In this document: piece after piece, positions 2,173 to 34,874 of the stretch
How positions within the stretch are numbered: position 1 is the stretch's first letter
Layout of the letters: each line of letters starts with the position of its first letter
Program-made: the position numbers and the translations under genes
Notes under the pieces: model-generated
The model's input: only the letters and a program-made list of their open reading frames with translations
Database searches by the model: none
Told to the model about the DNA's origin: nothing
DNA from: a virus
Taxonomy: Duplodnaviria; Caudoviricetes
Reading direction: 5' to 3' (one strand)
Length of the DNA: 46,632 nt
Virus record (IMG/VR): IMGVR_UViG_3300025838_000056
Location: 1 to 46,632 of that record

Positions 2173-2361
2173 ACCCCCATACCCCCCCCCGCAGCGGGAT
2201 CGAGGGAGATAAAAATCCCCTATCCCACCACCCCCAAAATTTTCAAATTTGACACAATTTGAGACAATATATCCTATTACCGTCTCATAATTATCCCACT
2301 TGACACAATATCGGGACAGGTATAGGACAGTTACGGGACGTTATTGAGATAATTTGTCTCA
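2173..2361. other. poly-C tracts followed by short direct/inverted repeats (possible packaging, origin or operator region)
   Basis: C-runs 2173-2235; TTGACACAAT at 2249 and 2300, TTGAGACAAT at 2259, GGACAG repeats, near-palindrome 2345-2361. Confidence 0.4.
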
Positions 2362-2377
2362 TTAGATTGGGATAGTA

Positions 2378-2668: not shown

Positions 2669-2985
2669 AAGTTAAGATTACACCGCAGAGCCAGATATGG
2701 GAATTGGAGCTTAGTATGAGGGCTGACAATTGCCTAAGGGAAGAAAAGATAGAGACGGTTGGCGACCTTTTGAAATACTCGGAGGCAAACCTTCTGCGTA
2801 TTCCAAGGTTGGGATTGAAGACGATAAAAGAGATACGGGATGTTTTGAGAGCAAACGGGTTGTTTCTGTCAGAGCAAGGCATCCCCTTCGACTGGCAGCC
2901 ATGTTTTTTATATTGGTCGCGGGTAAACTCTGGATCATCTCAAGAAAATTCAGACACGGAACCGGTGGAGATGGCGAGTGAGTGA
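2410..2985 (+). CDS. RNA polymerase alpha-subunit C-terminal-domain-like protein with N-terminal CxxC/CxxC
   Basis: 'ELELSMRADNCLREEKIETVGDLLKYSEANLLRIPRLGLKTIKEI' matches the alpha-CTD pattern; CQWC...CSIC at N-terminus; start uncertain. Confidence 0.75.
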   Translation: MQVDIICQWCRGTKFRVTSLPHRILLECSICRARTSRQHLGWVTTSSGQAAEGTGAFNTDSSKAVGEGWPISEHVVSPQEKTGPVLEVKITPQSQIWELELSMRADNCLREEKIETVGDLLKYSEANLLRIPRLGLKTIKEIRDVLRANGLFLSEQGIPFDWQPCFLYWSRVNSGSSQENSDTEPVEMASE

Positions 2986-3925
2986 GATTTTAATTGGCGA
3001 CACAAGAGAGTTGCTAAAGGCACTTCCGTCAGATCATTACGACTGCGTTGTCACCAGCCCTCCTTATTGGGGATTGAGGGACTATGGCGTTGATGGGCAG
3101 CTAGGTCTTGAGCCGACGATGCAGGGCTATCTGGATACGATGGTCGGCGTGTGCCGTGAGTTGCGCCGAGTGCTGAAGCCAGAGGGGACGTTTTGGTTGA
3201 ACATTGGGGATAGTTATGCGGCACCACCAGTTGGTCGTTTCAATGGTGGGGGGGTTAAAGATACTTCCGCTAAAAATGGAACTAGAGATTTAAGTGGAGT
3301 GGCTACAAGCGGCATAGCTAATAAGCTAAAAGGTTCTGGACTAAAACATAAAGACCTTTGCATGATTCCCAACCGCCTAGTAATCCTGCTTCAAGAGGAT
3401 GGCTGGTATGTCAGGTCTGAAATCATCTGGGCTAAACCCAACCCAATGCCTGAGAGTGTGAGAGACAGGCCGACATCAGCACATGAGAAAGTTTGGTTGC
3501 TAACTAAAAGTCCGAAGTATTTCTATGATGCGGATGCGATAAAAGAAGACGGTGTTATCCCTGCTGGCACTAAAGGGGCTAAGGGCAGCGCGGAAAGATA
3601 TAACACTGAAGGCGTCAATTCAAGGCCACCAGAGTATAAGATCTATGATGGCAAGCGGAACGTCAGGAACGTCTGGTCTATATCCCCAAAACCATTTCGC
3701 GGAGCTCACTTTGCCACCATGCCGTCAGAGCTTGCGGAGCGATGCATAAAGGCCGGATGCCCTGAGGGTGGGCACGTGCTTGATCCATTTGGTGGAGCAG
3801 GAACCACAGGATTAGTCGCGAATAGATTGGGTAGACAATACACGCTACTTGAATTAAACGAAGAATATGCCATGATGGCAACAAAACGTATACACGAGGA
3901 AGCACCTTTGCTGGAGGGCGTATGA
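2978..3925 (+). CDS. DNA methyltransferase (N4-C/N6-A, beta class)
   Basis: Catalytic 'TSPPY' N-terminal; SAM-binding 'VLDPFGGAGTT' C-terminal. Confidence 0.95.
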   Translation: MSEILIGDTRELLKALPSDHYDCVVTSPPYWGLRDYGVDGQLGLEPTMQGYLDTMVGVCRELRRVLKPEGTFWLNIGDSYAAPPVGRFNGGGVKDTSAKNGTRDLSGVATSGIANKLKGSGLKHKDLCMIPNRLVILLQEDGWYVRSEIIWAKPNPMPESVRDRPTSAHEKVWLLTKSPKYFYDADAIKEDGVIPAGTKGAKGSAERYNTEGVNSRPPEYKIYDGKRNVRNVWSISPKPFRGAHFATMPSELAERCIKAGCPEGGHVLDPFGGAGTTGLVANRLGRQYTLLELNEEYAMMATKRIHEEAPLLEGV

Positions 3926-4239
3926 CTGTAAAAGAGTTGGCGGGAGAATTAAGAAAAACCCCCGCGAATATGTTGGGCACAGAACTAGAGCAGCATTACT
4001 GGGACTGCCAAAAAGCGGCTGACATGCTTTTAAAGCTTAACCAGCAACTGGAGGATCTTCGCAAGTCGCACGACCGCAGCGAGGAAAAGTCTGAACGTAA
4101 CGAGCGTATATACCAGAGGCGAAAGTCAGGAGAGAAAGTCCGAGACCTTGCCATAGAGTATGGCGTGACACCGCCAGCAATATCCAAAATCTATTACCGC
4201 ATAAAAGAATTTCGCCGTAGGGAGGCTCTTAAGAAATGA
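3922..4239 (+). CDS. hypothetical protein with C-terminal HTH (Mor-like)
   Basis: 'RNERIYQRRKSGEKVRDLAIEYGVTPPAISKI'; coupled ATGA start. Confidence 0.65.
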   Translation: MTVKELAGELRKTPANMLGTELEQHYWDCQKAADMLLKLNQQLEDLRKSHDRSEEKSERNERIYQRRKSGEKVRDLAIEYGVTPPAISKIYYRIKEFRRREALKK

Positions 4240-7947: not shown

Positions 7948-8263
7948 TATTTCCCTATCGGGAATAACATGGGTAAAACTAACCCATAAAGGTAATATTT
8001 TACTGAGCGGTAAATATCACAAATCCCGCATAAATAAAGATTATGTCAAATCTCACATACGGCAAAATGCCGTATTATAAAACAAACTGAGCTATGAGAA
8101 ACAGTTCTATAAATCAGACCGCAGTTTGTGCGTAGAATATTGGTGCTAAAATCCGCAAATGATGCCGAGTAACGACAATATAAAGTGTCGCCTTTCTACT
8201 ACAAATGTCTCATATATGGATCACGAAGGCTACTAAAGAACCAAATTTGATACGGAGAGAACG

Positions 8264-8527
8264 ATGGCTGATATAATAACTAGACTAAGAACAGAGGGGT
8301 CATATGATGGAGTTTTTAATGCCCCTAAAATACAAATAGAGGCAGCAGAAAAGATTGAAGAACAGTTAATAATGATGGAAACACTAATAACTTTTTTAAC
8401 CATTAAAGCTGAAAAAATTAATAAATTAGAATCAGCGATAGATAAAGCGGCTGAATTGGCATACGAACACTGGCATAGTTGGCCAGCGGATGAAATTAAA
8501 GCTGCTATTTTAGAGTTAAAAAAATGA
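8264..8527 (+). CDS. hypothetical protein (Ead/Ea22-like N-terminus)
   Basis: GGAG RBS; 'DIITRLR...EAAEKIEE'. Confidence 0.6.
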   Translation: MADIITRLRTEGSYDGVFNAPKIQIEAAEKIEEQLIMMETLITFLTIKAEKINKLESAIDKAAELAYEHWHSWPADEIKAAILELKK

Positions 8528-8721
8528 CAGATATTACAAAGTTAATCCGATCTATCCCTATCTGGAAGTTTCCAGTAGACGAAAAGATAGACGGTGAGCT
8601 TTGGTATAACTGGAACGAGATATTATCGGATGCTGCCGACGAGATATCTATGCTTAGAGATATTCTGACGGATGATCAGTATAAGAAAGTATACGGCAAA
8701 AAGAGAAAGAAAAAAGAATGA
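8524..8721 (+). CDS. hypothetical protein
   Basis: ATGA-coupled; 'DAADEISMLR'. Confidence 0.6.
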   Translation: MTDITKLIRSIPIWKFPVDEKIDGELWYNWNEILSDAADEISMLRDILTDDQYKKVYGKKRKKKE

Positions 8722-12161: not shown

Positions 12162-14606
12162 ATGGAAGATCCTCGCCACCTCCGACTGCCTGAGCCAGAA
12201 GCTCCAGAGGCGGAAAAGGGAGAAACAATAGACCTAGGTGACTTAGATCTTATCAAGAAAAAGCCCGACGCTATTGTTGTTGACCTCCCAGACGGTGCTG
12301 TCACCATCAATTTCGGAGGATTATCTCTACCCAATGATGAAGAGGCGAGTGACCACGACGCTAACTTGGCTATGTATGTGGGTAGCGGCGTTCTCAGTGG
12401 CGTTTCAGATGAATTGCTAAGGCTTATACAGGACGACATCACCCGCCAAGAACAACGGTTGCAAGACGTCGTGAGAGGTATTGACCTCTTAGGCATTAAG
12501 CTCGAAGAGCCAAGGTCTGAACCAAATGACGAAGGCATATCGGTTGTTAGGCACCCTCTCTTACTTGAATCCGTTCTTAGGTTCCAAGCGAACGCTCGTG
12601 GAGAGATGCTCCCCGCAGACGGTCCGGTTAAGGTTTCGAATGAGGGTGATGGCACGCAGCAATTGGACGAAGAAGCGGATCAACTCGAGCAAGACTTCAA
12701 CCATTACCTCACGGTCGGTGCTCCTGAGTATTACCCCGATACGGATCGGATGTTCTTCTCACTGGGACATGGCGGAGAGGCTTATAAAAAAGTATATTGG
12801 CATCCACTCAAAAGACGTCCTGTCTCAGAAACGATTGATCGTAAGGACATTATACTCTCAGACGGTGCGGTATCACTTGAGGCTTGTGGCCGGATCACGC
12901 ATCGCTCAAGAATGCGTCCAAGCATCGTCAAGCAAATGCAGCTCGCGGGTGCGTGGCGGGATATCGCGTTAAGTAATGGCGTTACGATGCCCGACCTTAA
13001 TGTTGTTGATCGCAAGCTAGACGATATTGCAGGCTTAATGCCTAAGATGAATATCGGCCTAGAGGATAGTGACCGAGAGATATACGAGTGTTATTGTGAA
13101 CTTGATCTTAATGGTTTTGAGCACACAGAAGACGGCGAGAAAACGGGCCTACCGCTTCCATACAGAGTAACGATTGATAAGGATAGCCGCCAGATCCTTG
13201 AGATAAGACGCTGGTGGGCAGAGGGGGATAAAAGCTATGTCCGCCAAGAAGTCTTTGTTGAATACGTTTTCGTGCCAGCTTTCCCTGGGGTTAATCTTGG
13301 GTTGCTTCATATTCTGGGAAACGCTAGTCGCGCTCTTACTGCGGCTTGGCGAATTGCTCTTGATAATGGCATGTTGGCTAATTTCCCAGGCGGCATTATG
13401 GCTCGATCCACAGGTAAGCAACAGACGACCAGCATCCGAGTTGGCCCAGGCCAGGTTGCGCCTATGGATGTTGATGGCGTCCCGCTTAACCAAGCGTTTA
13501 TGCCCCTCCCCTACAGAGATGTAACAAGCGGGTTTATGAGCATCATTCAAGACGTAGAGCAAACATCTCAACGTCTGGCAGGAACCGCAGAGACGGCTGT
13601 CGGAGAGGGGCGTAGTGACGCTCCGGTAGGTACGACGATAGCTCTTATTGACCAAGCCCAAAAAGTTATTAACGCCGTCCACAAGCGTATGCACTCTGCC
13701 CAGCAAAAAGAGTTCAGCCTATTAAAAGATCTTTTCCGCCGAGACCCAGAGGCTATTTGGCGTAACAATAAAAATCCAAATTTCGAGGGTGATAAGCAGA
13801 ACCTTCTAGCAGCATTGAATAATAACGACATTGTTCCAAAGGCGGACCCTAACACGGCAAGCCAGTCAATGCGTATTCAAAAAGCCATAGCTATCTATAC
13901 ACTTGCACAGCAAAATCCATCTGCATTTAATGAGAAAGCTGTATACACCAAAATATTCTCAATGATTGGCATAGACGACGCTCAATATCTATTTAATGAA
14001 TCTCAGCCAGCTCCTCCACAGCCAGATCCGGTCCAAGAAATAAACGCTCAGGCTCAGATGGTTGCGGCTCAAGCCAAGATGATGGATGCTCAAACCAAGG
14101 CTCAGACAGCCCAAGTGGAAAGCGGCATTAAGGCTGCTGGAATTAAAACCAAAAACCTTGAAGCTATGACGAAGCAGCAAGCTGCGCAAACAGATGCGCA
14201 ACTGAGTGCTATGGACCAGCAAAATAAACTTCGCCTAGAGCACATGAAGTTGCAGCAGTCGTCGATTGTTCACGGAGACAAAGCAAGACAGGCTGACCGC
14301 CACAAGGCTGCGGAAATTAGTGCCAAAGAACGCATGAAGGCTAACGACCACATGCATCAGCTTAATCATCAAGAAAGACAGAATGCCCACGAAAACAATA
14401 TGAACGGTTTAGATTTGATGGCCGCCGTACGTGAGCATAACGCTAACTTGAATGAAGCTCGGCGCGAGCAAGAAACGCAGATTATCCATGACAGAAATCA
14501 AGAGTCTGCTCATAGGCAAAATGAATTAGAAATGGAAAAGATGCGTATCAACCGCGATATTTTAGATCGCTTGATGGCAGCTCCAAAGGGTGAGTCAGAG
14601 AGATGA
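12162..14606 (+). CDS. portal protein with long C-terminal coiled-coil
   Basis: 'HPLLLESVLRFQA', 'YKKVYW', 'APVGTTIALI' pattern of podovirus (P22-like) portals; size and position. Confidence 0.85.
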   Translation: MEDPRHLRLPEPEAPEAEKGETIDLGDLDLIKKKPDAIVVDLPDGAVTINFGGLSLPNDEEASDHDANLAMYVGSGVLSGVSDELLRLIQDDITRQEQRLQDVVRGIDLLGIKLEEPRSEPNDEGISVVRHPLLLESVLRFQANARGEMLPADGPVKVSNEGDGTQQLDEEADQLEQDFNHYLTVGAPEYYPDTDRMFFSLGHGGEAYKKVYWHPLKRRPVSETIDRKDIILSDGAVSLEACGRITHRSRMRPSIVKQMQLAGAWRDIALSNGVTMPDLNVVDRKLDDIAGLMPKMNIGLEDSDREIYECYCELDLNGFEHTEDGEKTGLPLPYRVTIDKDSRQILEIRRWWAEGDKSYVRQEVFVEYVFVPAFPGVNLGLLHILGNASRALTAAWRIALDNGMLANFPGGIMARSTGKQQTTSIRVGPGQVAPMDVDGVPLNQAFMPLPYRDVTSGFMSIIQDVEQTSQRLAGTAETAVGEGRSDAPVGTTIALIDQAQKVINAVHKRMHSAQQKEFSLLKDLFRRDPEAIWRNNKNPNFEGDKQNLLAALNNNDIVPKADPNTASQSMRIQKAIAIYTLAQQNPSAFNEKAVYTKIFSMIGIDDAQYLFNESQPAPPQPDPVQEINAQAQMVAAQAKMMDAQTKAQTAQVESGIKAAGIKTKNLEAMTKQQAAQTDAQLSAMDQQNKLRLEHMKLQQSSIVHGDKARQADRHKAAEISAKERMKANDHMHQLNHQERQNAHENNMNGLDLMAAVREHNANLNEARREQETQIIHDRNQESAHRQNELEMEKMRINRDILDRLMAAPKGESER

Positions 14607-16570
14607 CCAAGGGCTTTATAAAAAAAGCACTTCATATATCTCTTCACGCCCCTAAGAAGCCACGCGCACTCAAACTCCTTAAACTCGCAACACCCGCTGA
14701 TCTTCCGCAGATGAACGAGAAGATCAAAGAGGCACCATTTGCAGCTGGATGGAGACATAATTTTGACGATGGTGGGTTTATTCCTACACCTCCACGTCGC
14801 CCAGTAGAGCTATCAGGTGACGATGCATCACGTGCATTTCCCGCTATATGGAAGAATGTTAATCCTATTGTAAAATACAATATGGGTCGTCAGGGTGGTT
14901 ATGCTGAGACATACCCACCAAGAGAGACAGGCGACCCTAAAAACCCAAAATCAATACGACCTAAAGAGTTTGGTAAAGCTGGCCCGAATGCACGTACGGG
15001 TATTGAGGTATATCGCCCAGAAATGACTGGATCGGATTTGGCATTAGAACTTTTACATGCTGATCCAAGAGCTATCTCTACGCGAAATACACTTCTACCA
15101 ACAATGTCTCCAGAGCAATTGGCTGAGTTGCGTAATAGAAATGATTATAAATATTCTATTGAGGAAAAATTACCTCAGAAAAAAGCCTATGAAAATGCAA
15201 TGGATGCTGCGGCAAGATCATATTTAGCAAACAAACGAGACCTCCCTCATAATCAAGGCCCCGCAAGAGATATTGATTACATGAATTACACTGATGAGCA
15301 AAAGAAGCATCTAGATAATCTATATAATTACATGATGACGGGTGAATATGCTCGCGGTGGAGAGGTGTGGGATAAACCAAGACCAAAAGATTTAGGGAAG
15401 CCACACCATCTATCTTCAAAACAAAAAGCAAGCGCCAAGGCGGCTGCAAAAGCTGCGGGAAGACCGTATCCAAACCTTATTGATAACATGCGGGCTGCTA
15501 GAGAAGATGGAGGGTCCGTATATAACGCGTTAAGATTAGCAAATAACATTAATAGAAAAAATGGCGGACATGCTCCATACGGGGTTATAGATTATGGGGA
15601 TAAAATTATTATTGGGTCTCCTCATGGCGATCCTATAGAACTGTCCGACGACATAAAGAAAAGAGTTAAAGAAATCGCATCTAAGCACGGAGCTTGGTAT
15701 GAAGGTGATGGAAAAGATAATTCTGCTAATCATTCATTGTTTGGAGATAAAAAGGTATATAAAGGTTCTTGGGATGATGCTTCTGCACAAAATATAAGAG
15801 GTTATCCAACGGAATACCTTGCTCCGTTATTTAGTAATGTTGATGTGAATAAGCAGCACGAAACATTTGAGAACCCTCGACAAACTATATTTGATAGCCT
15901 TTTATCTAATCAAGCAAAGGCTCGTTATTTTAAAGACAGATCATACGATAAAGAAACCTTAGCAAATTTTCTTAAGCAGGGAAGTGAAAAAGACACCGAT
16001 CTTCTGCGTATGGCTGCATCTCCTGCAACAAAAGATAACTTGCAAAAGTTTTTTTCGACGGGTGAAAAATTAATGTGGCCAGATAACTGGCAAGAATATC
16101 CAAATAATTTAGGTAAAATAGCTAAAAAGTTTGAAGATTCTAGAAATAATTTTTTACACAACGCTCCCGCAGGAGTTTACATAACAGGCGCTGGTCATAT
16201 ACCTGAACTTCAAAAATCTTATAAAGATTTGAATGTTATTGGCGGAGAACGTGCGGGATACGCAAAGGGCGGAGGAGCATGGACCCGTAAGGAAGGTAAA
16301 AACCCAAATGGCGGATTAAACGCCAAGGGACGTGCTTCTTTAAAAGCTGAAGGTCATGACATTAAGCCACCACAACCAGAGGGTGGCGCAAGAAGAGATA
16401 GCTTTTGTGCTAGAATGAAAGGCATGAAAGCAAAGCTAACATCTAAAGAGACTGCAAACGACCCTAATAGTCGTATTAATAAGTCTCTTAGGGCTTGGAA
16501 TTGTCATGCGGATGGCGGCGTTATTACGGATGCCTTACGCCTAGCACACAAAATACAGCGGAAGAAATGA
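14603..16570 (+). CDS. modular (putative poly)protein of unrelated domains separated by GG motifs; last module DUF6321-like
   Basis: Six xxxGG junctions; module 'AWTRKEGKNPNGGLNAKGR...SFCARM...SLRAWNC' recalled as a stand-alone small phage protein. Confidence 0.75.
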   Translation: MTKGFIKKALHISLHAPKKPRALKLLKLATPADLPQMNEKIKEAPFAAGWRHNFDDGGFIPTPPRRPVELSGDDASRAFPAIWKNVNPIVKYNMGRQGGYAETYPPRETGDPKNPKSIRPKEFGKAGPNARTGIEVYRPEMTGSDLALELLHADPRAISTRNTLLPTMSPEQLAELRNRNDYKYSIEEKLPQKKAYENAMDAAARSYLANKRDLPHNQGPARDIDYMNYTDEQKKHLDNLYNYMMTGEYARGGEVWDKPRPKDLGKPHHLSSKQKASAKAAAKAAGRPYPNLIDNMRAAREDGGSVYNALRLANNINRKNGGHAPYGVIDYGDKIIIGSPHGDPIELSDDIKKRVKEIASKHGAWYEGDGKDNSANHSLFGDKKVYKGSWDDASAQNIRGYPTEYLAPLFSNVDVNKQHETFENPRQTIFDSLLSNQAKARYFKDRSYDKETLANFLKQGSEKDTDLLRMAASPATKDNLQKFFSTGEKLMWPDNWQEYPNNLGKIAKKFEDSRNNFLHNAPAGVYITGAGHIPELQKSYKDLNVIGGERAGYAKGGGAWTRKEGKNPNGGLNAKGRASLKAEGHDIKPPQPEGGARRDSFCARMKGMKAKLTSKETANDPNSRINKSLRAWNCHADGGVITDALRLAHKIQRKK

Positions 16571-19500
16571 CCATGAGCGATTTAATCAAAAAGGCATTAA
16601 AAGTTTCTTCCGGCAACATTCCAAGCGTAAAAGGAATCGCGGGTATACCCCACATTCATGGATACCGTGGGTCTAAAAAAATATCTGTATTGGACTATCC
16701 AAATCCAAATACTAAACTACGTCAGCATTTTGCGGCTGGGGGTAACCCAACATGTGTAGTCACATGTGACCCGAATAATCAGACATCTGGCCCATCGGGC
16801 GTTAACGCGGTAACAATTAACCCAATAGGTGGTCTTACTAATCCAACAGATCTTACCAAAGGTACTGGTATTGCAATACCAACAACAGCAAATCCAAATA
16901 ACTACGGACAATTTGTAAATTCATTATATAAAGCGGATTTCAATCGTGCAGCCGACACTGGCGGATCAAATTACTGGGCACAGCAATTACAATCTGGAGC
17001 AGCAACACCACAGCAGGTAGCACAAGCCTTTGCCGCTTCACAAGAATCCCAAAGCATGAAATCTGCGGGTGAAACTCCATCAACTTTTATTAATCCTACA
17101 GATTTTTCAAAACTTGATCTCGCCTCGATGGGTATTACAGACCCCACGATGGCTGGTATATCTAATCTAGGGCCGTCCCCCGTGACGCCTGCGGATACGA
17201 CGGGAGCTGGAACAAGTGATACAACGCCAGCAACAGACGGAAGTTTAACAACAACAGGTAATCCATTAAGTCCAAGTGACTACCAGAATTTTCTAACAAG
17301 TCTTTATCAGCAAGATCTAGGTCGCGCAGCAGACGTTGGTGGTCAGCAATATTGGCTTAATCAATTACAGACAGGAGCCCTAACCCCTGACCAAGTCGCA
17401 GCTAATTTTGCGTCGTCATCGGAAGCAGGCAATTACGACACAACTTCCATTAACAACATGATTACGAACCTGACAGGCGGTCAGTTGGGTTCTGCCGATA
17501 CTCAAGCTCTTGTCAATCAAATTCAATCCGGCAACATGAGTTTAAGCGATGTTGCAAGTTATCTTGGCCAGACTGCACAGGGGGCACAAGGCTATTGGAA
17601 TAGCTATAACGGAGTTAATTTAGATACATCTGCACCTACAAATACTGTAGGCCCAAATGATTTTGCGTCTGGAACAAATGTCAGCGGAAATGTTTCTAAC
17701 GCAAGTATTATTGACCCGTCAATAACAGCTCTTCCTGCATCTGTTAAAAGCAATATCGCAGATATGGGAAATCTTGGTTTTTCTCCGTCTGCCATTTCAA
17801 GTCTGTTATCTGGTCAAGGGTATAATATACCAGCGAATGCCATACAGAGTTCAATGTTTGGCCTGATTTCATCTCCAGCAACACCGGCTGCGTCAACAGG
17901 ATCTAGTTCTAGTGAAGGAACGCCAAGCACTGGCGGCAGTTTAAGCACGACCGGAACGCCGATAAGCACCGGAACGTATACAAACCCAACAACTAATGTC
18001 AGCACTGGCGTTCCGAACGCCAGTATGATTGACGCGTCTATTCAATCATTACCGTCTAATGCCCAGCAAGCAATTGTAGACATGAGTAGTTATGGCTATT
18101 CGCCGTCTACAATTTCTACTGTATTAAGCTCTCAAGGATATAATATTCCAGCAAATGCTATTCAATCTTCTTTATATGGGCTGGTTACGCAAAGTGGGAA
18201 TAATCTTATAACGGCAAATGATTTTGCTGGTAATATTGCATATCAAAAAGGTTTAGGTCAAACAACTTCTGGAATACCTACAGATCCGGCGTCACAAAAT
18301 ATTGTGCCGCTAAGTCAGCCAACAACGATGGTTGATGAGCCGACGACACCTAATGTCATTCCAAATGTGATGCAGCCACAGCAAACGCTGCCAGCTATTA
18401 ACATTTCGGGTAAGCCTGCGGCTATAGTTGATCAGCCAGCATCACCTAGTGGCATTCCAAATGTTATGCAGCCGGAAACACCGGCTCCTGCACCTAGTTT
18501 AATAGATCAAATTTCAGCGGGCATAAAAAATATTACGCAGCCTGTAACAAATACTATTCAGAACACAGGACAACAAGTAGTCGATGCAATTCAGGGAAAT
18601 GGTCAGGCAGCACCATCATCTGCGGATTATGGTTATCAAGGTTTTATGGATACATTAAACAGTGGGTTAAAATCTGCTGGAAATAATATTGGCGCAAAAA
18701 TAGATGCCGTCCAAAACGCTATACAAGTTCCACTAACTGCTGCTCAACAGGCAGCATTGGGGCTAATAGCAACAAATGAAAGCGGCGGCAATTACAATGT
18801 TATTCTAGGAGATCCGACTACACCCAATGGGGCAGCGCAAGGAGATATTGCAAAATCTGTTGGGTATACGGGCAATTTAGAGAATATGACGCTTTCGCAA
18901 ATTAATGCGATGCAAACAAAGATGTTAAAATCTCCAGCAAACAATAAAAATTCATCTGCCATAGGAGCGTATCAATTTACACAGCAAAATCTTTTTGGAT
19001 CTAAAGGAAAACCAGGGCAACTGGCACAACTTGGCATTACGCCAGATATGTATGACTCAATTAAGTTTACCCCTGCTCTCCAAGAAAAACTTGCCGCAAA
19101 TACTGCAATAGAAAAAAGAGGCATGAATTTATCTAACCCATCCTCTTGGGGGAAGGGAGCAAAGCAAGAATGGACGTCGGTAGGAAAATCACTAGCAGCG
19201 CCAGGGGCTATACAAAAGGTTCGCGCAGCAGGAAGTGGCCCTTCTCAAACAGTTGGCGGTCAACCGGCACAAGCATATAAACCAATCGTTCCTGTTAACG
19301 CTCCTATAGTGCCAAGCACCGTAACAAACGATCCAAACGCGGCGGCGGATGCGCTAAAAAATATAAATACGACTGCTGGAAATCAGATAATCCAGCAGAC
19401 GCAGGGATCTACGGCGCAAACTGGTTTGCCGACAAGCAATGTTTCAGGATCAGATGCACAAGGCACTCTAGAATCTTTACCCAGTGTAAATTCTGGTTCT

Positions 19501-21732
19501 ATTTCTACAGATCCAAATGCGGGAGCCCCATCAGATCAAGGAGCAGCGTTAAGTGGTGATGGGTCGCAAATGGTAGCCTCGACGTCCACCGTTCAAGTTC
19601 CGGTACAGGTTCAAGTGCCCAAAACGATAACTGTTCCGGGGCAAATGAAAACGTTTACGGGGCCGGATGGTAATAGCATTAGCTATCAAGAGCCTGCGAC
19701 AACCAAAACCGTCATGACGACACAGACGCAAATGCAGTCGAAGGACGTAACGACGCAAGTTCCGGCGTGGCAAAAAGAAGGATTTCAATCGCAGGCGGAT
19801 TATCAAGCAGCGGTGGATAATGGCAACACCAGCGCCAGCCAGTATTATGCTTCCCCTGAATATGCGCAGGCACAGCAAGAGCAGTTAAATGCGCAGGCAC
19901 AAAGTGAGGGGTTTTCTAGCTATGCAGAAAAGCAAGCGGCAAACGGCCAAAGCCCGGCAGATTATTACGCGCAACAAAATGGTTACGCTAATGCGGCAGC
20001 GGAAAATGCAGCCATAGAGTCAGTCCAAGAAGCAGATAGTGGTGAATATGGAGGTAGTGGGCGAGACATAGGCAATCGTGGCGGTCGCATGACTAAGAAT
20101 AAGCTACAGAAGAAAGCTTTAAAAATATCTGATGAGTTAACTCGCAGCGAAAAAGGCGGCGGCGGCCCTACAATTAGTCCTTACGGATTTGTTACCCCTG
20201 ACAGGTCAAAAAAGAACCCTATTCTAGAGCATAACCGTCTACACCCTAAGTCTTACGAACAGCAAAAAGCAGAAGCTGAAGAGTTGGCAAAACGTAAGCC
20301 GGTAGATCAGTGGTATGAACCGTGGTCTGAAAAAGAAGACCGTGGAATGGCCATATATCCTGAAGATTATCAAAAAGGTAATTTAGGACTAGGCCGATAT
20401 GCTATGAAAAAAGGCGGAACGATAGAGGATGCATGTGGAGGGGCATACAGCGGCCCCGCAAACACAGGAACAACAATTTCAGGAACGTTGACAGGTGTTA
20501 GCGGACAAGGGGCAGGGCAATCATATTCTTGGAAAAGAGGCGGTCGAGTTAATGACAAAACCGATACCCTAAAAAAACCCAATCTAGGAAGGACTGATAC
20601 AATGCATGATGATATTAAACACGCTCTTCGCCTAGCATTGGGACGTAAACACTATGCAAATGGCGGATCTGGAACTTGTAACGCGTCTAGTTCAAATAGC
20701 TTTACGCCTTTCCTAGATAACTTGTATCAGCAAGATTTAGGAAGAGCCGCTGACCAAGGCGGTGAGGAATACTGGGCTAACCAAATGGCTAACGGCATGT
20801 CGCCGGAGCAAGTCGCTGCTTCATTTTATAATAGCCAAGAAGCGCAAAACCGTAGACAAAATAATCCACAAATGCCGACACAGACACTAGGGTTGGGACA
20901 AGCTGCTTATAATAATCTCCCGCCATCTATGCAGGCACAAGCACAATCTTGTCAGCCTAATCCAGCACAACCTGCAATGCAATTAATGGGAGGGGGCTGT
21001 TCTACACCACAAGGGTTCTATGGGAATCGTGGTATGGATGGTAACAGAAATAATAATTTTATTAATAATCTGTATCAACAAGACCTTGGGCGTGCTCCTG
21101 ATCAATCAGGAGGTCAATATTGGCTTCAACAGATTCAAAGCGGTGCCATGACGCCACAGCAAGTTGCACAAAACTTTGCAAATTCATCCGAAGCTAAGTC
21201 ATATCAACAAGCAAACCCTAATAATCAACAATTCCAATTCCCATCTGGGCGTAACAATTTCGGAGGTTATGGTAATGGAACCAAGGGTGGGTATTCCATG
21301 CCGTCTCAACCAGTAGGCGGCGTTGGACAGCCTCCTAATATTGATCCTGCGTTATTACAGCAAATGCGCGGTCAGATGCAGGGTGCTCTAGGTCAAAATC
21401 AGGGAAGCAACGGCACAAAAAGCGGGTATGGTATGCCGCAGCAACCATACACTGGCCAAGGCAACGGCCTGAAAAACGGTTATAATCCTTCTCAGCCAAC
21501 TAATGTTCCGGCTATGGGTACAGGTCAGCCTATCGGCGGTGGAGGAGCTACCCCACAGGGATACGCTCAAGCAAACAATATTCCTTACCCACAACCTAAC
21601 GCACAAACAACCCCATTGAATGCACCTGCCGCTTTAGGATTTGCTCGAGGTGGTAAGGTAAAACAACGCAAGCATAAAAACGCGAAATCTAAGGCTCTTA
21701 GTGTTGTAAATAAATTTACAGGAAGAGAGTAA
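16567..21732 (+). CDS. large putative internal virion/ejection protein with DUF4214-like repeats and a lysozyme-like domain
   Basis: ATGA-coupled start 16567; four 'LY..DLGRA.D..G..YW...L..G.....QVA..F..S.E' repeats; 'ESGGNY...SAIGAYQF...KFTPALQEKLA' muramidase motif. Confidence 0.75.
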   Translation: MTMSDLIKKALKVSSGNIPSVKGIAGIPHIHGYRGSKKISVLDYPNPNTKLRQHFAAGGNPTCVVTCDPNNQTSGPSGVNAVTINPIGGLTNPTDLTKGTGIAIPTTANPNNYGQFVNSLYKADFNRAADTGGSNYWAQQLQSGAATPQQVAQAFAASQESQSMKSAGETPSTFINPTDFSKLDLASMGITDPTMAGISNLGPSPVTPADTTGAGTSDTTPATDGSLTTTGNPLSPSDYQNFLTSLYQQDLGRAADVGGQQYWLNQLQTGALTPDQVAANFASSSEAGNYDTTSINNMITNLTGGQLGSADTQALVNQIQSGNMSLSDVASYLGQTAQGAQGYWNSYNGVNLDTSAPTNTVGPNDFASGTNVSGNVSNASIIDPSITALPASVKSNIADMGNLGFSPSAISSLLSGQGYNIPANAIQSSMFGLISSPATPAASTGSSSSEGTPSTGGSLSTTGTPISTGTYTNPTTNVSTGVPNASMIDASIQSLPSNAQQAIVDMSSYGYSPSTISTVLSSQGYNIPANAIQSSLYGLVTQSGNNLITANDFAGNIAYQKGLGQTTSGIPTDPASQNIVPLSQPTTMVDEPTTPNVIPNVMQPQQTLPAINISGKPAAIVDQPASPSGIPNVMQPETPAPAPSLIDQISAGIKNITQPVTNTIQNTGQQVVDAIQGNGQAAPSSADYGYQGFMDTLNSGLKSAGNNIGAKIDAVQNAIQVPLTAAQQAALGLIATNESGGNYNVILGDPTTPNGAAQGDIAKSVGYTGNLENMTLSQINAMQTKMLKSPANNKNSSAIGAYQFTQQNLFGSKGKPGQLAQLGITPDMYDSIKFTPALQEKLAANTAIEKRGMNLSNPSSWGKGAKQEWTSVGKSLAAPGAIQKVRAAGSGPSQTVGGQPAQAYKPIVPVNAPIVPSTVTNDPNAAADALKNINTTAGNQIIQQTQGSTAQTGLPTSNVSGSDAQGTLESLPSVNSGSISTDPNAGAPSDQGAALSGDGSQMVASTSTVQVPVQVQVPKTITVPGQMKTFTGPDGNSISYQEPATTKTVMTTQTQMQSKDVTTQVPAWQKEGFQSQADYQAAVDNGNTSASQYYASPEYAQAQQEQLNAQAQSEGFSSYAEKQAANGQSPADYYAQQNGYANAAAENAAIESVQEADSGEYGGSGRDIGNRGGRMTKNKLQKKALKISDELTRSEKGGGGPTISPYGFVTPDRSKKNPILEHNRLHPKSYEQQKAEAEELAKRKPVDQWYEPWSEKEDRGMAIYPEDYQKGNLGLGRYAMKKGGTIEDACGGAYSGPANTGTTISGTLTGVSGQGAGQSYSWKRGGRVNDKTDTLKKPNLGRTDTMHDDIKHALRLALGRKHYANGGSGTCNASSSNSFTPFLDNLYQQDLGRAADQGGEEYWANQMANGMSPEQVAASFYNSQEAQNRRQNNPQMPTQTLGLGQAAYNNLPPSMQAQAQSCQPNPAQPAMQLMGGGCSTPQGFYGNRGMDGNRNNNFINNLYQQDLGRAPDQSGGQYWLQQIQSGAMTPQQVAQNFANSSEAKSYQQANPNNQQFQFPSGRNNFGGYGNGTKGGYSMPSQPVGGVGQPPNIDPALLQQMRGQMQGALGQNQGSNGTKSGYGMPQQPYTGQGNGLKNGYNPSQPTNVPAMGTGQPIGGGGATPQGYAQANNIPYPQPNAQTTPLNAPAALGFARGGKVKQRKHKNAKSKALSVVNKFTGRE

Positions 21733-21735: not shown

Positions 21736-22260
21736 ATGAGTTTTTACACAGATGTTATTAAGAAAGACCCGCGTTTTTCTTCCGTAAATATTTGTAGGGA
21801 TATGGCTCTTCTTGAGCCATCCTTCCGCGCTAAGGTTCAGTCATTAGTGGCGCAAGCATCTAAAGATGGGCATGACATTAGAATTGCGGAAACATTCAGG
21901 TCTCAAGCTAGACAGGCTCATTTGTTCGAGCAAGGATACACTCAACTTAAGAATGTTGGCGTTCATAATTACGGACTAGCTTGCGACTTTAATTTGTTTA
22001 TAGATGGCGTTTATCAGTCTGACGGAGCCAAATATAAATTCCTGCACGATTACGAAAAGAAATTTAGAATAATTAGTGGTCAGTTGTGGGGAACGCCGTG
22101 GCAGAAGCACACGTTTACAGATTGGGACCACATACAGGGCATACCTGTATTTCGGCAAGGCTCTCTCTTTAATGGTTCTTGGTATCCTGATAATAACTAT
22201 GACCCAATAGCTGACACGATAACGCATTATGGATCTGTGGCTACAAAATATTATGGGTGA
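21736..22260 (+). CDS. M15-family peptidoglycan peptidase (endolysin)
   Basis: 'ETFRSQARQ', 'HNYGLACD', 'DWDHIQ' Zn-binding motifs. Confidence 0.85.
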   Translation: MSFYTDVIKKDPRFSSVNICRDMALLEPSFRAKVQSLVAQASKDGHDIRIAETFRSQARQAHLFEQGYTQLKNVGVHNYGLACDFNLFIDGVYQSDGAKYKFLHDYEKKFRIISGQLWGTPWQKHTFTDWDHIQGIPVFRQGSLFNGSWYPDNNYDPIADTITHYGSVATKYYG

Positions 22261-22264
22261 CAAT

Positions 22265-22492
22265 ATGAAATATAATATTAATCGTCACTTAAATATTATA
22301 CGCAGGAATAAGAAAACAACTTTCGTTGGACTTGCTGTATTAGCAGGAACCGGAATTAAATGGGGGCTAGGAGCTCCTAGTCCATCAGATATCCCAACGG
22401 TTGCCTCTTCTTTAGTAGAAGTATTGATTGGTCTAGGTTTATTACTTGCTAAAGATTATGATGTGCAGGGAGTTCCACATGACGAACAATAA
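22265..22492 (+). CDS. putative holin
   Basis: Two hydrophobic segments, 'KKTT..G' start, '..GLGLLLAKD' end; between two endolysins. Confidence 0.65.
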   Translation: MKYNINRHLNIIRRNKKTTFVGLAVLAGTGIKWGLGAPSPSDIPTVASSLVEVLIGLGLLLAKDYDVQGVPHDEQ

Positions 22493-22958
22493 TCTGCACA
22501 TTAGTGACAAAGGATTAAATTTAATTAAAAAGTCAGAGGGTTGTTCTTTAGAGTCATATATTGATACACACGATTCTCATGGAGCCCCACTATGGGCTAT
22601 TGGATATGGTCATACAAATAAAGCCGGACCTCCTAATGTTACGGCTGGTATGGTTATTACACAGGATCAAGCAGATCAAATATTAAAGCAAGATTTAATT
22701 CCATATGAAAATTCAATTAGAAATTTAATAACTGTTCCATTAAACCAAAATCAATGGGACGCATTGTGTTCTTTTACTTTTAATGCTGGAGCGGGTAATT
22801 TAAAAAAACTTGTATTGGCTAGCCAGCTAAATGACGGGGATTACTTGGGTGTGGCTCCGGCTATGATGAATTTTAATACCTCCCAAGGCAAGGTTCTTCT
22901 TGGTCTCACAAGACGTCGCAAAGCTGAAGGCGACTTGTTCAACACACCCGTATCGTAG
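22479..22958 (+). CDS. lysozyme, glycoside hydrolase family 24 (endolysin)
   Basis: 'GLNLIKKSEG', 'IGYGHT', 'LNQNQWDALCSFTFNAG', 'GLTRRRKAE'. Confidence 0.93.
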   Translation: MTNNNLHISDKGLNLIKKSEGCSLESYIDTHDSHGAPLWAIGYGHTNKAGPPNVTAGMVITQDQADQILKQDLIPYENSIRNLITVPLNQNQWDALCSFTFNAGAGNLKKLVLASQLNDGDYLGVAPAMMNFNTSQGKVLLGLTRRRKAEGDLFNTPVS

Positions 22959-22967
22959 GGCATTAAA

Positions 22968-24890
22968 ATGAACGAAGATATTAAATACGCTCTGCGTATC
23001 GCTAACCGCTTACCTTCTCGTCGTCGTTTTGCGACTGATGGCGGCGTTGATATTGGAGCTCCTTCACATGAAGAAGAGAAAGCCAGAAATAGATTTTTGA
23101 GGGAAGAACTAAAGGGCTCCGCTCCACAGTATGACCCTTCAGCCGGAATGATGACGGGAAAACAAGCCGCTCTGTTTGGAGCCGGACTATTACCAGGTTC
23201 CGGTATTGCTTCTGCGGCGGGTAAATTTCCTACTGCGGAAGGAGGATTTGAGCCTTCGTTAGCAGAAGATTTAAGAAATAAAGAATACTTATCAGCCGGA
23301 CTCAAAGGTCTTGGAGCTGCTGGTGACGTAGCGTCTGCTGTTCCCGTAGTAGGGACAGCACTTGGTTCTGCATTGAAACTACCGCTAGCCACTAAGATGG
23401 CTATGGCGATGGTTCCAAAAGCAAGCGGAGCGGTAAAGGAAGCTGTAGAACTAGCAAAATCTCGTCCGGCTAAGGCAGCAAAACCGTCTTCAGTAGCGCA
23501 ACCAGTAGTAAAATCAGCGCCACCTTTTGTATTGTCATCCACAATACAACCAGGTCAGGCTAAATCTCTAGCAAACGACACGCGTGTTTCTACAAGGTTC
23601 CCATTGGGTGTTTCTAAGGTTGGGGACGCCCTTAGAGATGATCTACAGATTGGCTCAGAGCATATGTCGTTGAGCCCAGAGGTTTTTGCTCACAACATGA
23701 GCCTTGTTTCAGAATACCCAGGGCTTTCTCATACTAAAGGCATGAGTCCTAAAGAAGCGCGTGAAGCGTTCTTACAGCACGGCACGAAGAACCTTGTATA
23801 CTTATACAATAATTCCCCTAAAGCCATACAGCAAAGGTCTCGGCTTTGGTATGAAGGTGCCAATAGAATATCTGACGAACTTGCAAAAAGATATGGTATT
23901 CCTAGACAGTCTATGTCCGCATCCATAGCAGCTCTTTCTCCTCAGAAAGACTGGAATATGAATGCTTCTTTGGCTGAACGGACGGCGGATATATTATTTG
24001 GCGATCAGGCTCACAAGCCTATGACGCGTCAAATGATAAAATACGCACAACGCCCAAGCACCAAACAAGACCCTAATTTTATTTTGGACAACCCAGCCAA
24101 CTTTGATCTTTATAGACAAATGAAGGGTGCGTCTTTGCATGACCTTCATGGCAATCCTGAAGCTCAGGCAATGTGGGTTAGATTATATGATGAGGCCCAT
24201 AATCCTAAAGCATTTAGGGCAATTACTCCTGAAGGAGAATATGGCGACTTCATGCGAAATGCCAACGGCAAAACTAGGAATGTCGCTTGGTCAAGCTTGG
24301 ATATGATTGAAAAGGCTATAAGATCGCTACAGTCAGGTGGTCATATGGATACCATATCTCCATTATTAGGAGATAAGCATAAGGTCAGAAGCTTCTTTAA
24401 TAATATAGAGTTGCCAAACGATCCACGTGGTGATTTTACTGGGGACACTCACCAAGTAGGCGCTACGCTATTACTACCAGTATCCCAAAAAAGTCCTTCA
24501 GTTTCTCATAATTTCGGTGTAGGTTTGTCTAAGAAAGACCAGCCTGAAGGCTACCGTGCCGCTAAAAATATTAAGCTTCACGGCGTTCACGGGACCTACG
24601 GGCTTTATGCAGATGCTGGAAGAAGAGCAGCCGCAGAATTGGGTATGCTTCCTAGAGAAGTTCAGTCTTCTACATGGGAACCAGTAAGAGAATTGTTTAA
24701 ACCTGAATATAAAAGAAGCGCGGATGCGGACTTAATAGAAAAAATATGGAGAGCTAAAGATGCAGGACAGATCACAGACGACCAAGCACGAGACGCAATC
24801 TTCCAATCCGCTGGCGGAATTGGAACACCTGAGTGGGCGAAGCTCAACTTTACGCCGATTGATCCGCGTCGGGGGTCCACTTACCGCTAA
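22968..24890 (+). CDS. GG-leader protein with C-terminal HhH DNA-glycosylase-like domain (DUF7178-like)
   Basis: 'WY...IAALSPQKDW..N', 'HKVRSFFNNI', 'TGDTH', 'Y...A..A...G..P...Q...W'; family recalled, unverified. Confidence 0.6.
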   Translation: MNEDIKYALRIANRLPSRRRFATDGGVDIGAPSHEEEKARNRFLREELKGSAPQYDPSAGMMTGKQAALFGAGLLPGSGIASAAGKFPTAEGGFEPSLAEDLRNKEYLSAGLKGLGAAGDVASAVPVVGTALGSALKLPLATKMAMAMVPKASGAVKEAVELAKSRPAKAAKPSSVAQPVVKSAPPFVLSSTIQPGQAKSLANDTRVSTRFPLGVSKVGDALRDDLQIGSEHMSLSPEVFAHNMSLVSEYPGLSHTKGMSPKEAREAFLQHGTKNLVYLYNNSPKAIQQRSRLWYEGANRISDELAKRYGIPRQSMSASIAALSPQKDWNMNASLAERTADILFGDQAHKPMTRQMIKYAQRPSTKQDPNFILDNPANFDLYRQMKGASLHDLHGNPEAQAMWVRLYDEAHNPKAFRAITPEGEYGDFMRNANGKTRNVAWSSLDMIEKAIRSLQSGGHMDTISPLLGDKHKVRSFFNNIELPNDPRGDFTGDTHQVGATLLLPVSQKSPSVSHNFGVGLSKKDQPEGYRAAKNIKLHGVHGTYGLYADAGRRAAAELGMLPREVQSSTWEPVRELFKPEYKRSADADLIEKIWRAKDAGQITDDQARDAIFQSAGGIGTPEWAKLNFTPIDPRRGSTYR

Positions 24891-25014
24891 GGCTTATATT
24901 GAATCAAATTGGGTGTCCAAATCTGATATTCCTGAAGAATTTGATCCAGAGGATCAGGAAATAATCAACGCATTAGATGATTTGCAAGAGATGATTAAGA
25001 CTAAACGTAAATAA
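24760..25014 (+). CDS. small acidic protein overlapping the 3' end of the glycosylase-like gene
   Basis: GGAG shortly before ATG 24760; 'PLTAKAYIESNW...PEEFDPED'. Confidence 0.55.
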   Translation: MQDRSQTTKHETQSSNPLAELEHLSGRSSTLRRLIRVGGPLTAKAYIESNWVSKSDIPEEFDPEDQEIINALDDLQEMIKTKRK

Positions 25015-25082
25015 TAAGATTATTTAAATAAAACGTTAATAATATAGTAGTATTATTACGTCTCTCATATCATGGAGATAAC

Positions 25083-25835
25083 ATGACTATATATAAATAC
25101 GGTTGGAAGCGACAGTCGCTTGACCACCGAGATATTAAATATAACGCATCTCCTGTAGACCCCCAAAACCCTATTGATCTACGCCCCCATATGCCACCTG
25201 TTTACGATCAGGGACAAACGTCTAGTTGTGTCGCTAACGCGACCGCTGGTGCTTTCCAATATTCACGCATGGCGCAAAGTCTAGAAAACTGGACGCCTAG
25301 CCGCTTGTTTATTTACTGGAATGCGCGTAGCTATGAAAACGGTACGGATACGGACGGTGGGTCTGAATGCCGTGATGGCGTAAAGGGTGTGGCACAATTT
25401 GGTGTTTGCCCAGAAGTTGAGTGGCCATTTGATCCGTCTTCTGTTGTTGCAAAGCCTAATCCTGAAGCGTATCAAACAGCGTTACACGCGAAGGCCACTC
25501 AATACGCCGCCGTTAATCAGAGCCTTGAGCATATCTTATCGTGCTTAAACCATAAGTTGCCCGTAATATTTGGGACTAACGTATTCCAAGCATTCGAAGG
25601 CCCTGAAGTCTCCTCAAACGGCATTGTTCCTATGCCGTCTCCGACTGAGAGAGCCATAGGCGGACACGCTATACTGATTGTTGGGTGGAAACCTGACACT
25701 CAGGAGTTTATTGTCAGGAATAGTTGGGGAGAAGGATGGGGAGATAACGGTTACTGCTACTTCCCAAGAGATTACATTCTTAACCCAAATTTATCATCCG
25801 ATTTCTGGGTGATTTACTTAACATCAAGGGACTAA
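25083..25835 (+). CDS. papain-like cysteine peptidase (C1 family)
   Basis: 'DQGQTSSC' (Gln/Cys), 'GGHAILIVGW' (His), 'RNSWG' (Asn); no signal peptide. Confidence 0.93.
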   Translation: MTIYKYGWKRQSLDHRDIKYNASPVDPQNPIDLRPHMPPVYDQGQTSSCVANATAGAFQYSRMAQSLENWTPSRLFIYWNARSYENGTDTDGGSECRDGVKGVAQFGVCPEVEWPFDPSSVVAKPNPEAYQTALHAKATQYAAVNQSLEHILSCLNHKLPVIFGTNVFQAFEGPEVSSNGIVPMPSPTERAIGGHAILIVGWKPDTQEFIVRNSWGEGWGDNGYCYFPRDYILNPNLSSDFWVIYLTSRD

Positions 25836-25838
25836 ACA

Positions 25839-26150
25839 ATGAAAAAGTTATTACTTATTCCGGTTTTGGCGTTTGTCTTAACTGGGTGCAACACAACCAG
25901 CCAAGCAAACCTGACGAAAATCATCTCTCAGGTTCAAGATGCAGCTGTTGCCGCTTGTCGCTTCGAGCCAACAGTAGCCACCATCACTTCCATTGTGACG
26001 GCTAATCAGGCTGCAACTGCTATTCAGATTGCTGATTTGATTTGCGGAGCAGTAAATGGAACGACCCCCACGCCCAAAGCGGGTGCTGGTCCTATGTATG
26101 TGACCGTTAATGGGCAGAAGATTGCCGTAACGGGCAATTTTGTAAAGTAA
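25839..26150 (+). CDS. lipoprotein (possible spanin)
   Basis: 'MKKLLLIPVLAFVLTGC' signal peptide II lipobox. Confidence 0.75.
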   Translation: MKKLLLIPVLAFVLTGCNTTSQANLTKIISQVQDAAVAACRFEPTVATITSIVTANQAATAIQIADLICGAVNGTTPTPKAGAGPMYVTVNGQKIAVTGNFVK

Positions 26151-26366: not shown

Positions 26367-27584
26367 ATGGCACATGAGTATAAAGAAGAAGCCAAGGCTT
26401 CTCACGAGAAAAAGCTTAAATTGTACGGCAAGGAAGATGAAGTCGGCAAAAAAGCTAAAAACTGGGCTGGATTTGACGCTCTGAATACTAATGAGCAGCG
26501 TGGTCTTAAGCCTATTGATAAGGAGCCAGAGCTTTCCAAAGATACAGCCCCACGCATCATGCGTAAAAAGGGTGGGCGTGTCCACGGAGCAGAATCTTTA
26601 AAAAGATTAGATAAGGCTCCTCGCAAAGGTAAACAAATGGGTGGGCCTATGGGGATGCCTTCGATGGCTCCGGCTATGGCAGCTCGTCCTGTCCCCACGC
26701 CAATGCAGGCATCTGCAATCGCCAACCGTATGCAACCATCTATTGTAGCACGTAAAAAAGGCGGGAAGGTAGAAGAGCATCCAGACGAGAGAGAAGATCG
26801 TGCTCTTGTTAAAAAGATGGTTAAAGAAGATGCTCTGACGGGTAAGTCTCGCGGCGGCATGGCTCGCAAAAAATACGCTGACGGTGGATTGCCGTCTCCA
26901 GAAGAGGCTATGCGGTCAGCACAGCGTCTAAAAGAATTGCGTTCAATGCCAACCCCCAACCGCCGCTCCCCTCCTATGGGTTCTGGAGTGCCTTCTGCTG
27001 ACAGAAATGCATTAGGTAACATGCTTCGCGCTCCAACTTCTGCTGATTATCGCAAGGGAAATCTTGGCGATGGTGAGTATGCAATGAAACGCGGTGGTCG
27101 TGCAAAGCGTGCTGACGGCGGCATGTTAGGCATGGGCGAGCACGGTAAATCCAGCAAAAAGGGCGGCGGTAAAACAACCGTTAATATTATTATTGGAGCC
27201 CCAAAAGGCAGTGATGCTGGCCAACAGGGTGCATTTCCTCCTCCAATGATGGCTGGATCTCCACCCTCTATGGCACCACCTTCTGCTCCTCCTATGGGTG
27301 CTGGACCGCAGCTTCCTCCTAATCTTGCTGGTGGTCCTCCAATGGCACCTCCAATGGGTGGTGCATTACCTGCAATCGCTGCTGGTATGCCGCAAGGTGG
27401 CCCTCCGATCCCACGCAAAGACGGCGGGACAGTAAAGGCAGGAATACAAGTGCCTTATAAAAAACCAAAGCATACGTCTGAGGGTTATCTAAAGATGGAT
27501 TTTGGTGCTGGCACAGGATTTGGCCGTATGCAGAAAGGCGATGCCTACGGAGCGAAGCCGATTAAAAGTAGAGACAATTACTAA
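26367..27584 (+). CDS. basic low-complexity protein with nine GG motifs (putative internal head protein)
   Basis: ATG 26367 after AGGA; RKKGG/YADGG/MKRGG/RADGG/RKDGG; K/R/M/P-rich. Confidence 0.75.
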   Translation: MAHEYKEEAKASHEKKLKLYGKEDEVGKKAKNWAGFDALNTNEQRGLKPIDKEPELSKDTAPRIMRKKGGRVHGAESLKRLDKAPRKGKQMGGPMGMPSMAPAMAARPVPTPMQASAIANRMQPSIVARKKGGKVEEHPDEREDRALVKKMVKEDALTGKSRGGMARKKYADGGLPSPEEAMRSAQRLKELRSMPTPNRRSPPMGSGVPSADRNALGNMLRAPTSADYRKGNLGDGEYAMKRGGRAKRADGGMLGMGEHGKSSKKGGGKTTVNIIIGAPKGSDAGQQGAFPPPMMAGSPPSMAPPSAPPMGAGPQLPPNLAGGPPMAPPMGGALPAIAAGMPQGGPPIPRKDGGTVKAGIQVPYKKPKHTSEGYLKMDFGAGTGFGRMQKGDAYGAKPIKSRDNY

Positions 27585-31495: not shown

Positions 31496-31508
31496 GGAGT
31501 AGGCTCAC

Positions 31509-34463: not shown

Positions 34464-34874
34464 ATGAAGGGTAAGAAATACAAAGACGATATGGATCGTC
34501 ACTGCCGCGCTGATGGTGGTTCTGTTGAAGAAGGCGTTGAAGTTTCCGAGGAAGGTCCACGGGACGTATACGCTGGTGGTGATTCGCCAACCGTAAAGGC
34601 TGCGCGTAACACAAAGAGCCAGTTTAAAAAGGGCGGTAAGGTTTCTGCTTTTAAGCGTGGTGAAATGTCGGAAGGCATGAAGGAACACGACGAAAAGAAG
34701 AAAATGAAAAAGCATGGCGGCATGGCTGAAGGCGAAAAAGGCCATCACCGCGCTGACCGCGCTCCACGCAAGGCTGGCGGTCGCGTAGGCCGTGACATGG
34801 GTGGACCTATTTCTACGGCTGGTAAAGTTGATGTTCGCCCTAACTTCAAGGGCAACACAACGATTGCCGATTAA
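34464..34874 (+). CDS. small basic protein with multiple GG motifs
   Basis: RADGG, FKKGG, KKHGG, RKAGG. Confidence 0.7.
   Translation: MKGKKYKDDMDRHCRADGGSVEEGVEVSEEGPRDVYAGGDSPTVKAARNTKSQFKKGGKVSAFKRGEMSEGMKEHDEKKKMKKHGGMAEGEKGHHRADRAPRKAGGRVGRDMGGPISTAGKVDVRPNFKGNTTIAD

Follow-up and report, generated by a model that had tools for sequence, protein, structure and literature searches.

A chain of four exchangeable modules joined at a Gly-Gly motif behind the portal gene of a podovirus-like freshwater phage, and its possible role as head cargo

The viral record IMGVR_UViG_3300025838_000056 (Duplodnaviria; Caudoviricetes), analysed over positions 1 to 46,632 of one strand (the window), holds the late region of a podovirus-like phage, with genes for terminase, portal protein, GroES, a scaffold-like protein, the major capsid protein and tail fibres. 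The runs containing this stretch are freshwater metagenomes, and the source phage is kin to pelagiphage HTVC023P: its capsid protein is 38–40 % identical to the counterparts in HTVC023P, CRP-901 and MinM2, and 80 % identical to that of MW202675. Directly behind the portal gene, with a start that overlaps the portal stop, lies an open reading frame (ORF) in which six copies of the motif [FYHR]-x-x-G-G bracket four modules, A to D, exactly. A sequence-only reading of this DNA had described such an ORF, with the modules joined at GG motifs, and the six motifs indeed occupy the exact module borders. The portal gene, the ORF and its parts (lengths in amino acids, aa) are as follows.

12162..14606, + strand: portal protein (phrog_1216), given as context; motif-free
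14603..16570, + strand: modular ORF of 655 aa that follows the portal gene directly, likely a virion cargo protein
14603..14761, + strand: basic N-terminal leader with an I-K-K-A-L helix like the cargo-ORF starts of relatives
14762..14776, + strand: junction motif 1, FDDGG, residues 54-58
14777..15346, + strand: module A, 190 aa
15347..15361, + strand: junction motif 2, YARGG, residues 249-253
15362..15499, + strand: module B, 46 aa, basic, phrog_34011
15500..15568, + strand: spacer with motif 3, REDGG (300-304), an amphipathic V-x-x-A-L-R-L-A segment and motif 4, RKNGG (318-322)
15569..16258, + strand: module C, 230 aa
16259..16273, + strand: junction motif 5, YAKGG, residues 553-557
16274..16504, + strand: module D, 77 aa, basic, DUF6321
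16505..16570, + strand: junction motif 6, HADGG (635-639), and a 16-aa tail with an A-L-R-L-A segment

The six matches in the ORF compare with a mean of 0.50 in shuffled versions, none of 20,000 of which reached six, for a pattern that was composed after the sequences had been seen. Within the window, the pattern fits 21 of the 55 GG runs that five tagged proteins contain, as against one of 59 in 16 other late proteins. Ten GG runs occur in the ORF, four of which are internal to modules and are not junctions. In the cargo ORFs of relatives, the motif profile reads R(-6), R/Y/F(-3), A/K(-2), GG, V(+2), and the Gly codons of the motif are varied. An amphipathic A-L-R-L-A segment accompanies the motif in the subclade of the window; next to the motifs in HTVC023P and MinM2, no such segment was seen. 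Contigs of two other runs from the same year and habitat span the leader/A, A/B, B/C and C/D junctions (leader/A by one run), which makes a chimera of the assembly unlikely. Literature searches found no description of this GG motif.

All four modules have free-standing relatives. Module D matches DUF6321 (Pfam PF19846) over positions 1-72 of 72 (E 1.9e-17, 64.1 bits against a cut-off of 28.5), as the earlier reading had supposed, and it matches 509 phage records; it forms an 84-aa gene in pelagiphage HTVC035P and a complete gene in 22 of the 44 copies at fetched loci. Module B corresponds to phrog_34011, a family of 55 positions (E 1e-19), and is a complete gene in 18 of 38 copies at such loci. 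In the cultured Synechococcus phage MinM2, B (55 aa) and D (81 aa) each form a complete gene, side by side and without the flanking motif, which, together with the HTVC035P gene for D, agrees with the earlier statement that both occur as complete small genes in aquatic phages. A tblastn search of the phage collection with module B at E 0.01 returned no match; local blastp without the low-complexity filter does find the MinM2 gene. Both modules are strongly basic and possibly bind DNA. Module A belongs to no family, has one free-standing relative (197 aa) and reaches only 0.83 against an LPD23 cluster; its conserved E-x-L-H resembles the zincin motif minus the first His, a weak lead that it may be a degenerate zincin.

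Module C has 57 free-standing relatives of 201-340 aa. In the 50 that were aligned, 16-53 residues lie ahead of the first invariant His and 10-28 after the last, compared with 18 (counted from the GG) and 20 (to the end of the module) in the window. The predicted model is a single compact domain with a predicted local distance difference test score (pLDDT) of 95; H19, E45, D50, D69, N90, R192 and G207 are invariant and H210 nearly so (at least 90 %). From the compact fold and the invariant His, Glu, Asp, Asn and Arg, module C is predicted to be likely an enzyme. Its TraB/GumN/Tiki-like residues are only a lead: we take the pattern of that family to be a His after strand 1, a Glu after strand 2, a late Arg and G-x-x-H, a comparison made without aligning module C to a family member. 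The TraB/ChaN matches are weak, with one of 51 module C members matching in the TraB/PrgY/GumN-Tiki-ChaN profile search, at E 0.096 and short of the cut-off. Many of the free-standing relatives start with G-L-L leaders, others with A-A-K-S-I or W-K-K/S-I.

The modules are independent of one another and are reordered at the motif. Searches with the portal and capsid proteins supplied loci (80 each), complemented by fetched genomes. In these, 89 module copies were counted, near-duplicates remaining among them; records of the window itself, five T4-like records and exact duplicates had been left out. Of the 178 ends of these copies, 172 coincide with a start, a stop or a GG within 12-14 residues, three with only a Met and three with neither. 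The orders D-B (14 ORFs), B-A-D, A-B-D, A-D-B, C-B and D-C-B occur in relatives. The proposal that the cargo is cassette-like and can be swapped between phages is thus borne out: homology ends at the junctions, relatives reorder the modules, and B and D exist as stand-alone genes. Removal of near-copies reduced the 316 ORFs between portal and GroES to 203, of which 83 were kept as cargo ORFs (at least 150 aa, with motif or helix, not of the basic family). In these, 86 of 526 homology breakpoints lie at most five residues from a motif, where 22.1 +/- 4.4 were expected, compared with 69 near other GG runs, where 56.7 +/- 6.9 were expected. Twenty of 62 cargo ORFs have a motif close to their C-terminus, at a distance of 13-27 residues. 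At the level of DNA, one run's contig shares A and B with the window and differs up to 14779, right behind motif 1, and the stretches coding for helix and motif show weak similarity (68-83 % over 23-33 bases). The cargo ORFs of relatives hold ART-PolyVal, InPase, PBECR5, LPD23, M15 and tail-lysozyme domains, which ties this slot to polyvalent proteins.

The same modules recur in T4-like phages with other borders. Five T4-like cyanophage records were fetched of the 509 with module D, four of them filed as Kyanoviridae, and in all five D is preceded by V-D-E, V-E-E, L-P-E, V-D-E or I-D-E; the Glu lies 3-4 residues before the conserved Trp, the position of the first Gly in most GG forms. Among 48 distinct rows for this Trp, it follows GG in 13, Met in 27, x-E in five and something else in three. 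Module C also occurs in 45 longer proteins, many of them close kin and seen without genomic context, of which 11 are flanked by GG (nine on both sides by pattern, one on one side and one by eye), 23 by x-E and 11 have a Q-L-A-K-A-L-A helix behind C. The x-E ([VILM]-x-E) is found downstream in 22 and upstream in 20 of the 23, none of which has a flanking GG motif. In addition, 5 of the 57 free-standing C relatives begin with F-x-x-F/Y-x-x-E leaders like the T4 capsid-targeting sequence (CTS). As described for T4, gp21 cuts after L/I-X-E (PMC9026906), and the CTS targets cargo and is itself removed (PMC9026906, PMC5694885). The apparent equivalence of GG and x-E in the same slots of modules C and D is the main argument that the motif may be cut. 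Helices of the E-L-A-A-G-L / Q-L-A-K-A-L-A type form a third junction code of module C, and chains of the x-E type contain a small Cys-containing module that starts N-F-A-D-G, near the GG motif. By eye, the small basic genes gp51 and gp52 of HTVC023P resemble modules in x-E-punctuated proteins of T4-like cyanophages (loci 22481-23133 and 957-3737 in two records); the pool of modules in common would then reach further than B and D.

A small conserved domain encoded beside the ejection genes of relatives is a candidate reader of the motif. Two copies of it, with the signature G-[ES]-Y-V, are found together with an A-L-x-x-A helix and a GG in a conserved core protein of about 188 aa, without family, which precedes GNAT and the ejection genes (14399-14965, 3576-4172, 13443-13976, 14420-14986 and 8091-8684 in the records of five relatives) and whose locus lies beyond the window's end. 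Single copies end the ejection-type proteins of HTVC023P, MinM2, GB2A and DSL-LC04 and occur on tape-measure-like proteins; the copy from Caulobacter phage GB2A gives matches to tape-measure PHROGs (E 8e-9). The domain was found in nine of 12 genomes, eight of them profile seeds. The three genomes that lack it have 0-2 motif hits (0.00-0.17 per 1000 aa compared with 0.35-1.74 in the others), in counts that include the domain's own motif and with the three representing about two lineages on a weakly resolved tree; GB2A has the domain and few motifs. The predicted model of the small core protein has a pLDDT of 77, and its GG segment, residues 42-48, falls below 50.

A possible parallel is provided by gp45 (cargo protein 1; 30988-33516) of crAss001, a proven virion cargo whose resolved pieces comprise residues 214-245 in the tail and 425-552 at the portal wing (PMC10172136; PDB 7QOG). 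By eye, similar motifs occur at 209, 263, 332, 373, 427, 562 and 828; small basic segments and the domain bound to the portal are set apart by them. Each of the two pieces seen by cryo-EM has GG motifs at its borders. The pieces lie in different compartments with the motifs at 263, 332 and 373 between them, which cutting would explain. The portal-bound piece, reported from residue 425, includes A-F-G-G428 and sits on SH3-like loops of the portal wing. The main text of PMC10172136 mentions neither cleavage of gp45 nor such a role of the motif, and its supplement 2 mentions no cleavage. No homology was detected between the portal-bound domain and the small domain of the clade (hhalign 0.2-1.6%).

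Taken together, the GG motif is likely a cargo tag of head assembly. Packaging in the virion we infer from the position behind the portal gene, the polyvalent domains in the same slot of relatives and the motif on ejection-type proteins. The fuller explanation that we favour, and hold tentatively, is that the ORF encodes a chain of four modules joined at a Gly-Gly address-and-cut mark and likely carried in the phage head. Related phages exchange modules at the Gly-Gly peptide; the chain would be carried inside the head; and the peptide would be read during head assembly as the clade's predicted counterpart of the T4 CTS and gp21 site combined, with a putative targeting role for the A-L-R-L-A helix and the small domain by the ejection genes as candidate reader. 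Cutting by an enzyme would then release the small basic peptides B and D, possibly DNA-binding, and the folded domains A and C for ejection. Several results weigh against this explanation. The ORF was earlier called a polyprotein, of which the chain of independent modules stands, whereas cutting at GG lacks a conserved protease: matches to the papain-family (C1 peptidase) gene of the window occur in 0 of 48 loci holding portal and GroES, Prok-JAB is absent in all five genomes examined, and clustering of ten genomes gave no shared family recognizable as a prohead protease, not all shared families having been scanned. The families shared by the ten are terminase, portal, GroES, scaffold, capsid, tail and GNAT, plus unknowns, and several core proteins are without family; no gp21-type (S77) prohead protease is present among the 33 window proteins scanned, from terminase to tail fibres. 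The scaffold has no GG and the portal no motif, unlike in T4, where gp21 cuts scaffold and capsid protein. Modules B and D also stand free without the tag, and the clustering of breakpoints shows location and not function, because most breakpoints lie elsewhere and linkers disrupt homology anyway. The x-E proteins with module C come without genomic context, x-E is a common tripeptide that is also nearby in 5 of the 11 GG-class proteins, and V-x-E and P-x-E depart from the L/I-X-E of T4. Finally, the reported residue range of gp45 suggests a copy that is ordered and not cut behind A-F-G-G, the kinship of its motif being putative.

The absence of a recognizable protease would be expected if the motif were an uncut docking peptide, whose copies bind a receptor at the portal vertex (the portal wing or the small tail-proximal domain), gather cargo, basic and ejection proteins, and leave the chain to be ejected whole. 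We regard this as a real possibility, somewhat less probable than the address-and-cut mark. It is supported by the A-F-G-G at which the gp45 piece on the portal wing begins, by motif copies only 8-28 residues apart in a 136-aa protein of the window, by those near the C-terminus of cargo ORFs and by the motif-poor genomes that lack the small domain, the latter being, however, only about two lineages with counts that include the domain's own motif. A docking tag, moreover, need not bracket every module on both sides or occupy the x-E position of T4-like phages, and the GG segment of the small core protein is modelled with low confidence. The clustered breakpoints, the weak DNA similarity of the helix- and motif-coding stretches and the contig that diverges just behind motif 1 would also suit a flexible hinge and shared recombination handle, exchanged through short similar linker DNA and read by no protein; this is unlikely, given the position-specific residues from -6 to +2, the synonymous variety of the Gly codons, the copies at protein ends and in module-less proteins, and the confinement of the motif to a set of late proteins. 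It is highly improbable that a host factor, either a host protease or the groove of GroEL, reads the motif once ejection has taken place, with modules released or refolded inside the cell. In favour of it, a GroES-like gene is conserved (in 8 of the 10 clustered genomes), no phage protease was found, and the motif may resemble the GroES mobile loop; against this, the phages that have the motif include those of cyanobacteria, alpha- and gammaproteobacteria and Bacteroides, and CRP-901, QDWS535 and MW202796 keep GroES without the motif.

A wider idea, which we consider doubtful, is that one Gly-Gly cargo code is common to HTVC023P-like, crAss-like and siphophage lineages, and that the motif is read or cut by the small G-P..D..G-E-[FY]-V domain on ejection and tape-measure proteins; whatever domain stands between two motifs would then be loaded and released. 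If true, it would mean that very abundant aquatic phages mature by a new system, one with relevance to the cleavage of lambda gpH, so far unexplained. At single-residue resolution, an abundant group of aquatic phages appears to build head cargo from a pool of modules that T4-like cyanophages also draw on, with a junction code particular to each lineage fitted to these modules. As a loading tag, the motif would serve podoviruses as a portable packaging signal, much as the CTS serves T4; cutting would mean that a phage protease is still to be discovered. MinM2, HTVC023P, DSL-LC04, GB2A and crAss001 are cultured members.

The motif and further features are found elsewhere in the window.

16567..21732, + strand: second cargo-type ORF, 1721 aa, DUF4214 repeats, same motif and helix
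22968..24890, + strand: third cargo-type ORF, 640 aa, DUF7178, A-L-R-I-A leader and FATDGG
26367..27584, + strand: conserved basic low-complexity protein with eight motif copies, upstream of GroES and scaffold
31509-32423: major capsid protein
34464..34874, + strand: basic mini-protein of 136 aa, following the capsid genes, with six GG spaced 8-28 residues

The 1721-aa protein (16567-21732) has four DUF4214 repeats, internal duplications of 96 and 318 bases and, by eye, a lysozyme-like stretch near residue 740. Among the cargo genes lies a lysis-type block (21736-26150), mostly private to the window genome, with M15 peptidase, holin-like, lysozyme, C1 peptidase and lipoprotein genes. A gene of about 70 aa before GroES (27700-27930) is conserved in relatives, the copy in the window having no ATG start and reading from N-L-D-L-R-L. 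Positions 2410-2985 encode a phage protein that contains the C-terminal domain of RNA polymerase alpha (E 4e-17). Homing-type endonuclease genes (HNH/endonuclease VII and GIY-YIG; 32556-34000 and 29342-29893) flank the capsid gene and in relatives often lie among the cargo genes.

Viral polyproteins cut at Gly-Gly are known from the adenovirus protease and from pp220 and pp62 of African swine fever virus, in which core proteins are released behind Gly-Gly; viruses of this type encode a Ulp1-like cysteine protease, none of which was detected in scans of the window proteins. Lambda gpH loses a C-terminal piece of about 14 kDa, the site and enzyme being given as unknown (PMC12617516). In gpH (1543-4104), F-A-T-G-G lies at 736 and Y-A-T-G-G at 781, with G-E-F-V between them, and M-R-D-G-G at 845. 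These motifs lie in the piece that is cut off. The profile link to the small domain is weak (hhalign 12%), and gpH differs in that the estimated cut (about 691-730) precedes the first motif and in that gpH is packed in the tail. Polyvalent proteins are predicted to be packaged and injected, and MPTase domains within the chain are held responsible for their processing (Iyer et al. 2017, PMC5512222). Like the ORF described here, they are long variable chains of unrelated domains, encoded near head genes in portal-terminase packaging phages, and the ORFs of relatives in the same slot hold their ART-PolyVal, InPase, PBECR5 and LPD23 domains. In contrast, the window ORF itself has no Pfam polyvalent domain or MuF, and the word 'glycine' is absent from the main text of PMC5512222. 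The T4 system, as summarized in PMC9026906 and PMC5694885, likewise combines a short helix-like targeting peptide with a short site at the ends of cargo, and modules C and D have CTS-like leaders or x-E sites in other phages, but the junction site here is Gly-Gly instead of Glu (L/I-X-E) and the head module is P22-like. The window ORF is best described as encoding a modular protein of cargo type, the junctions of which follow a conserved code.

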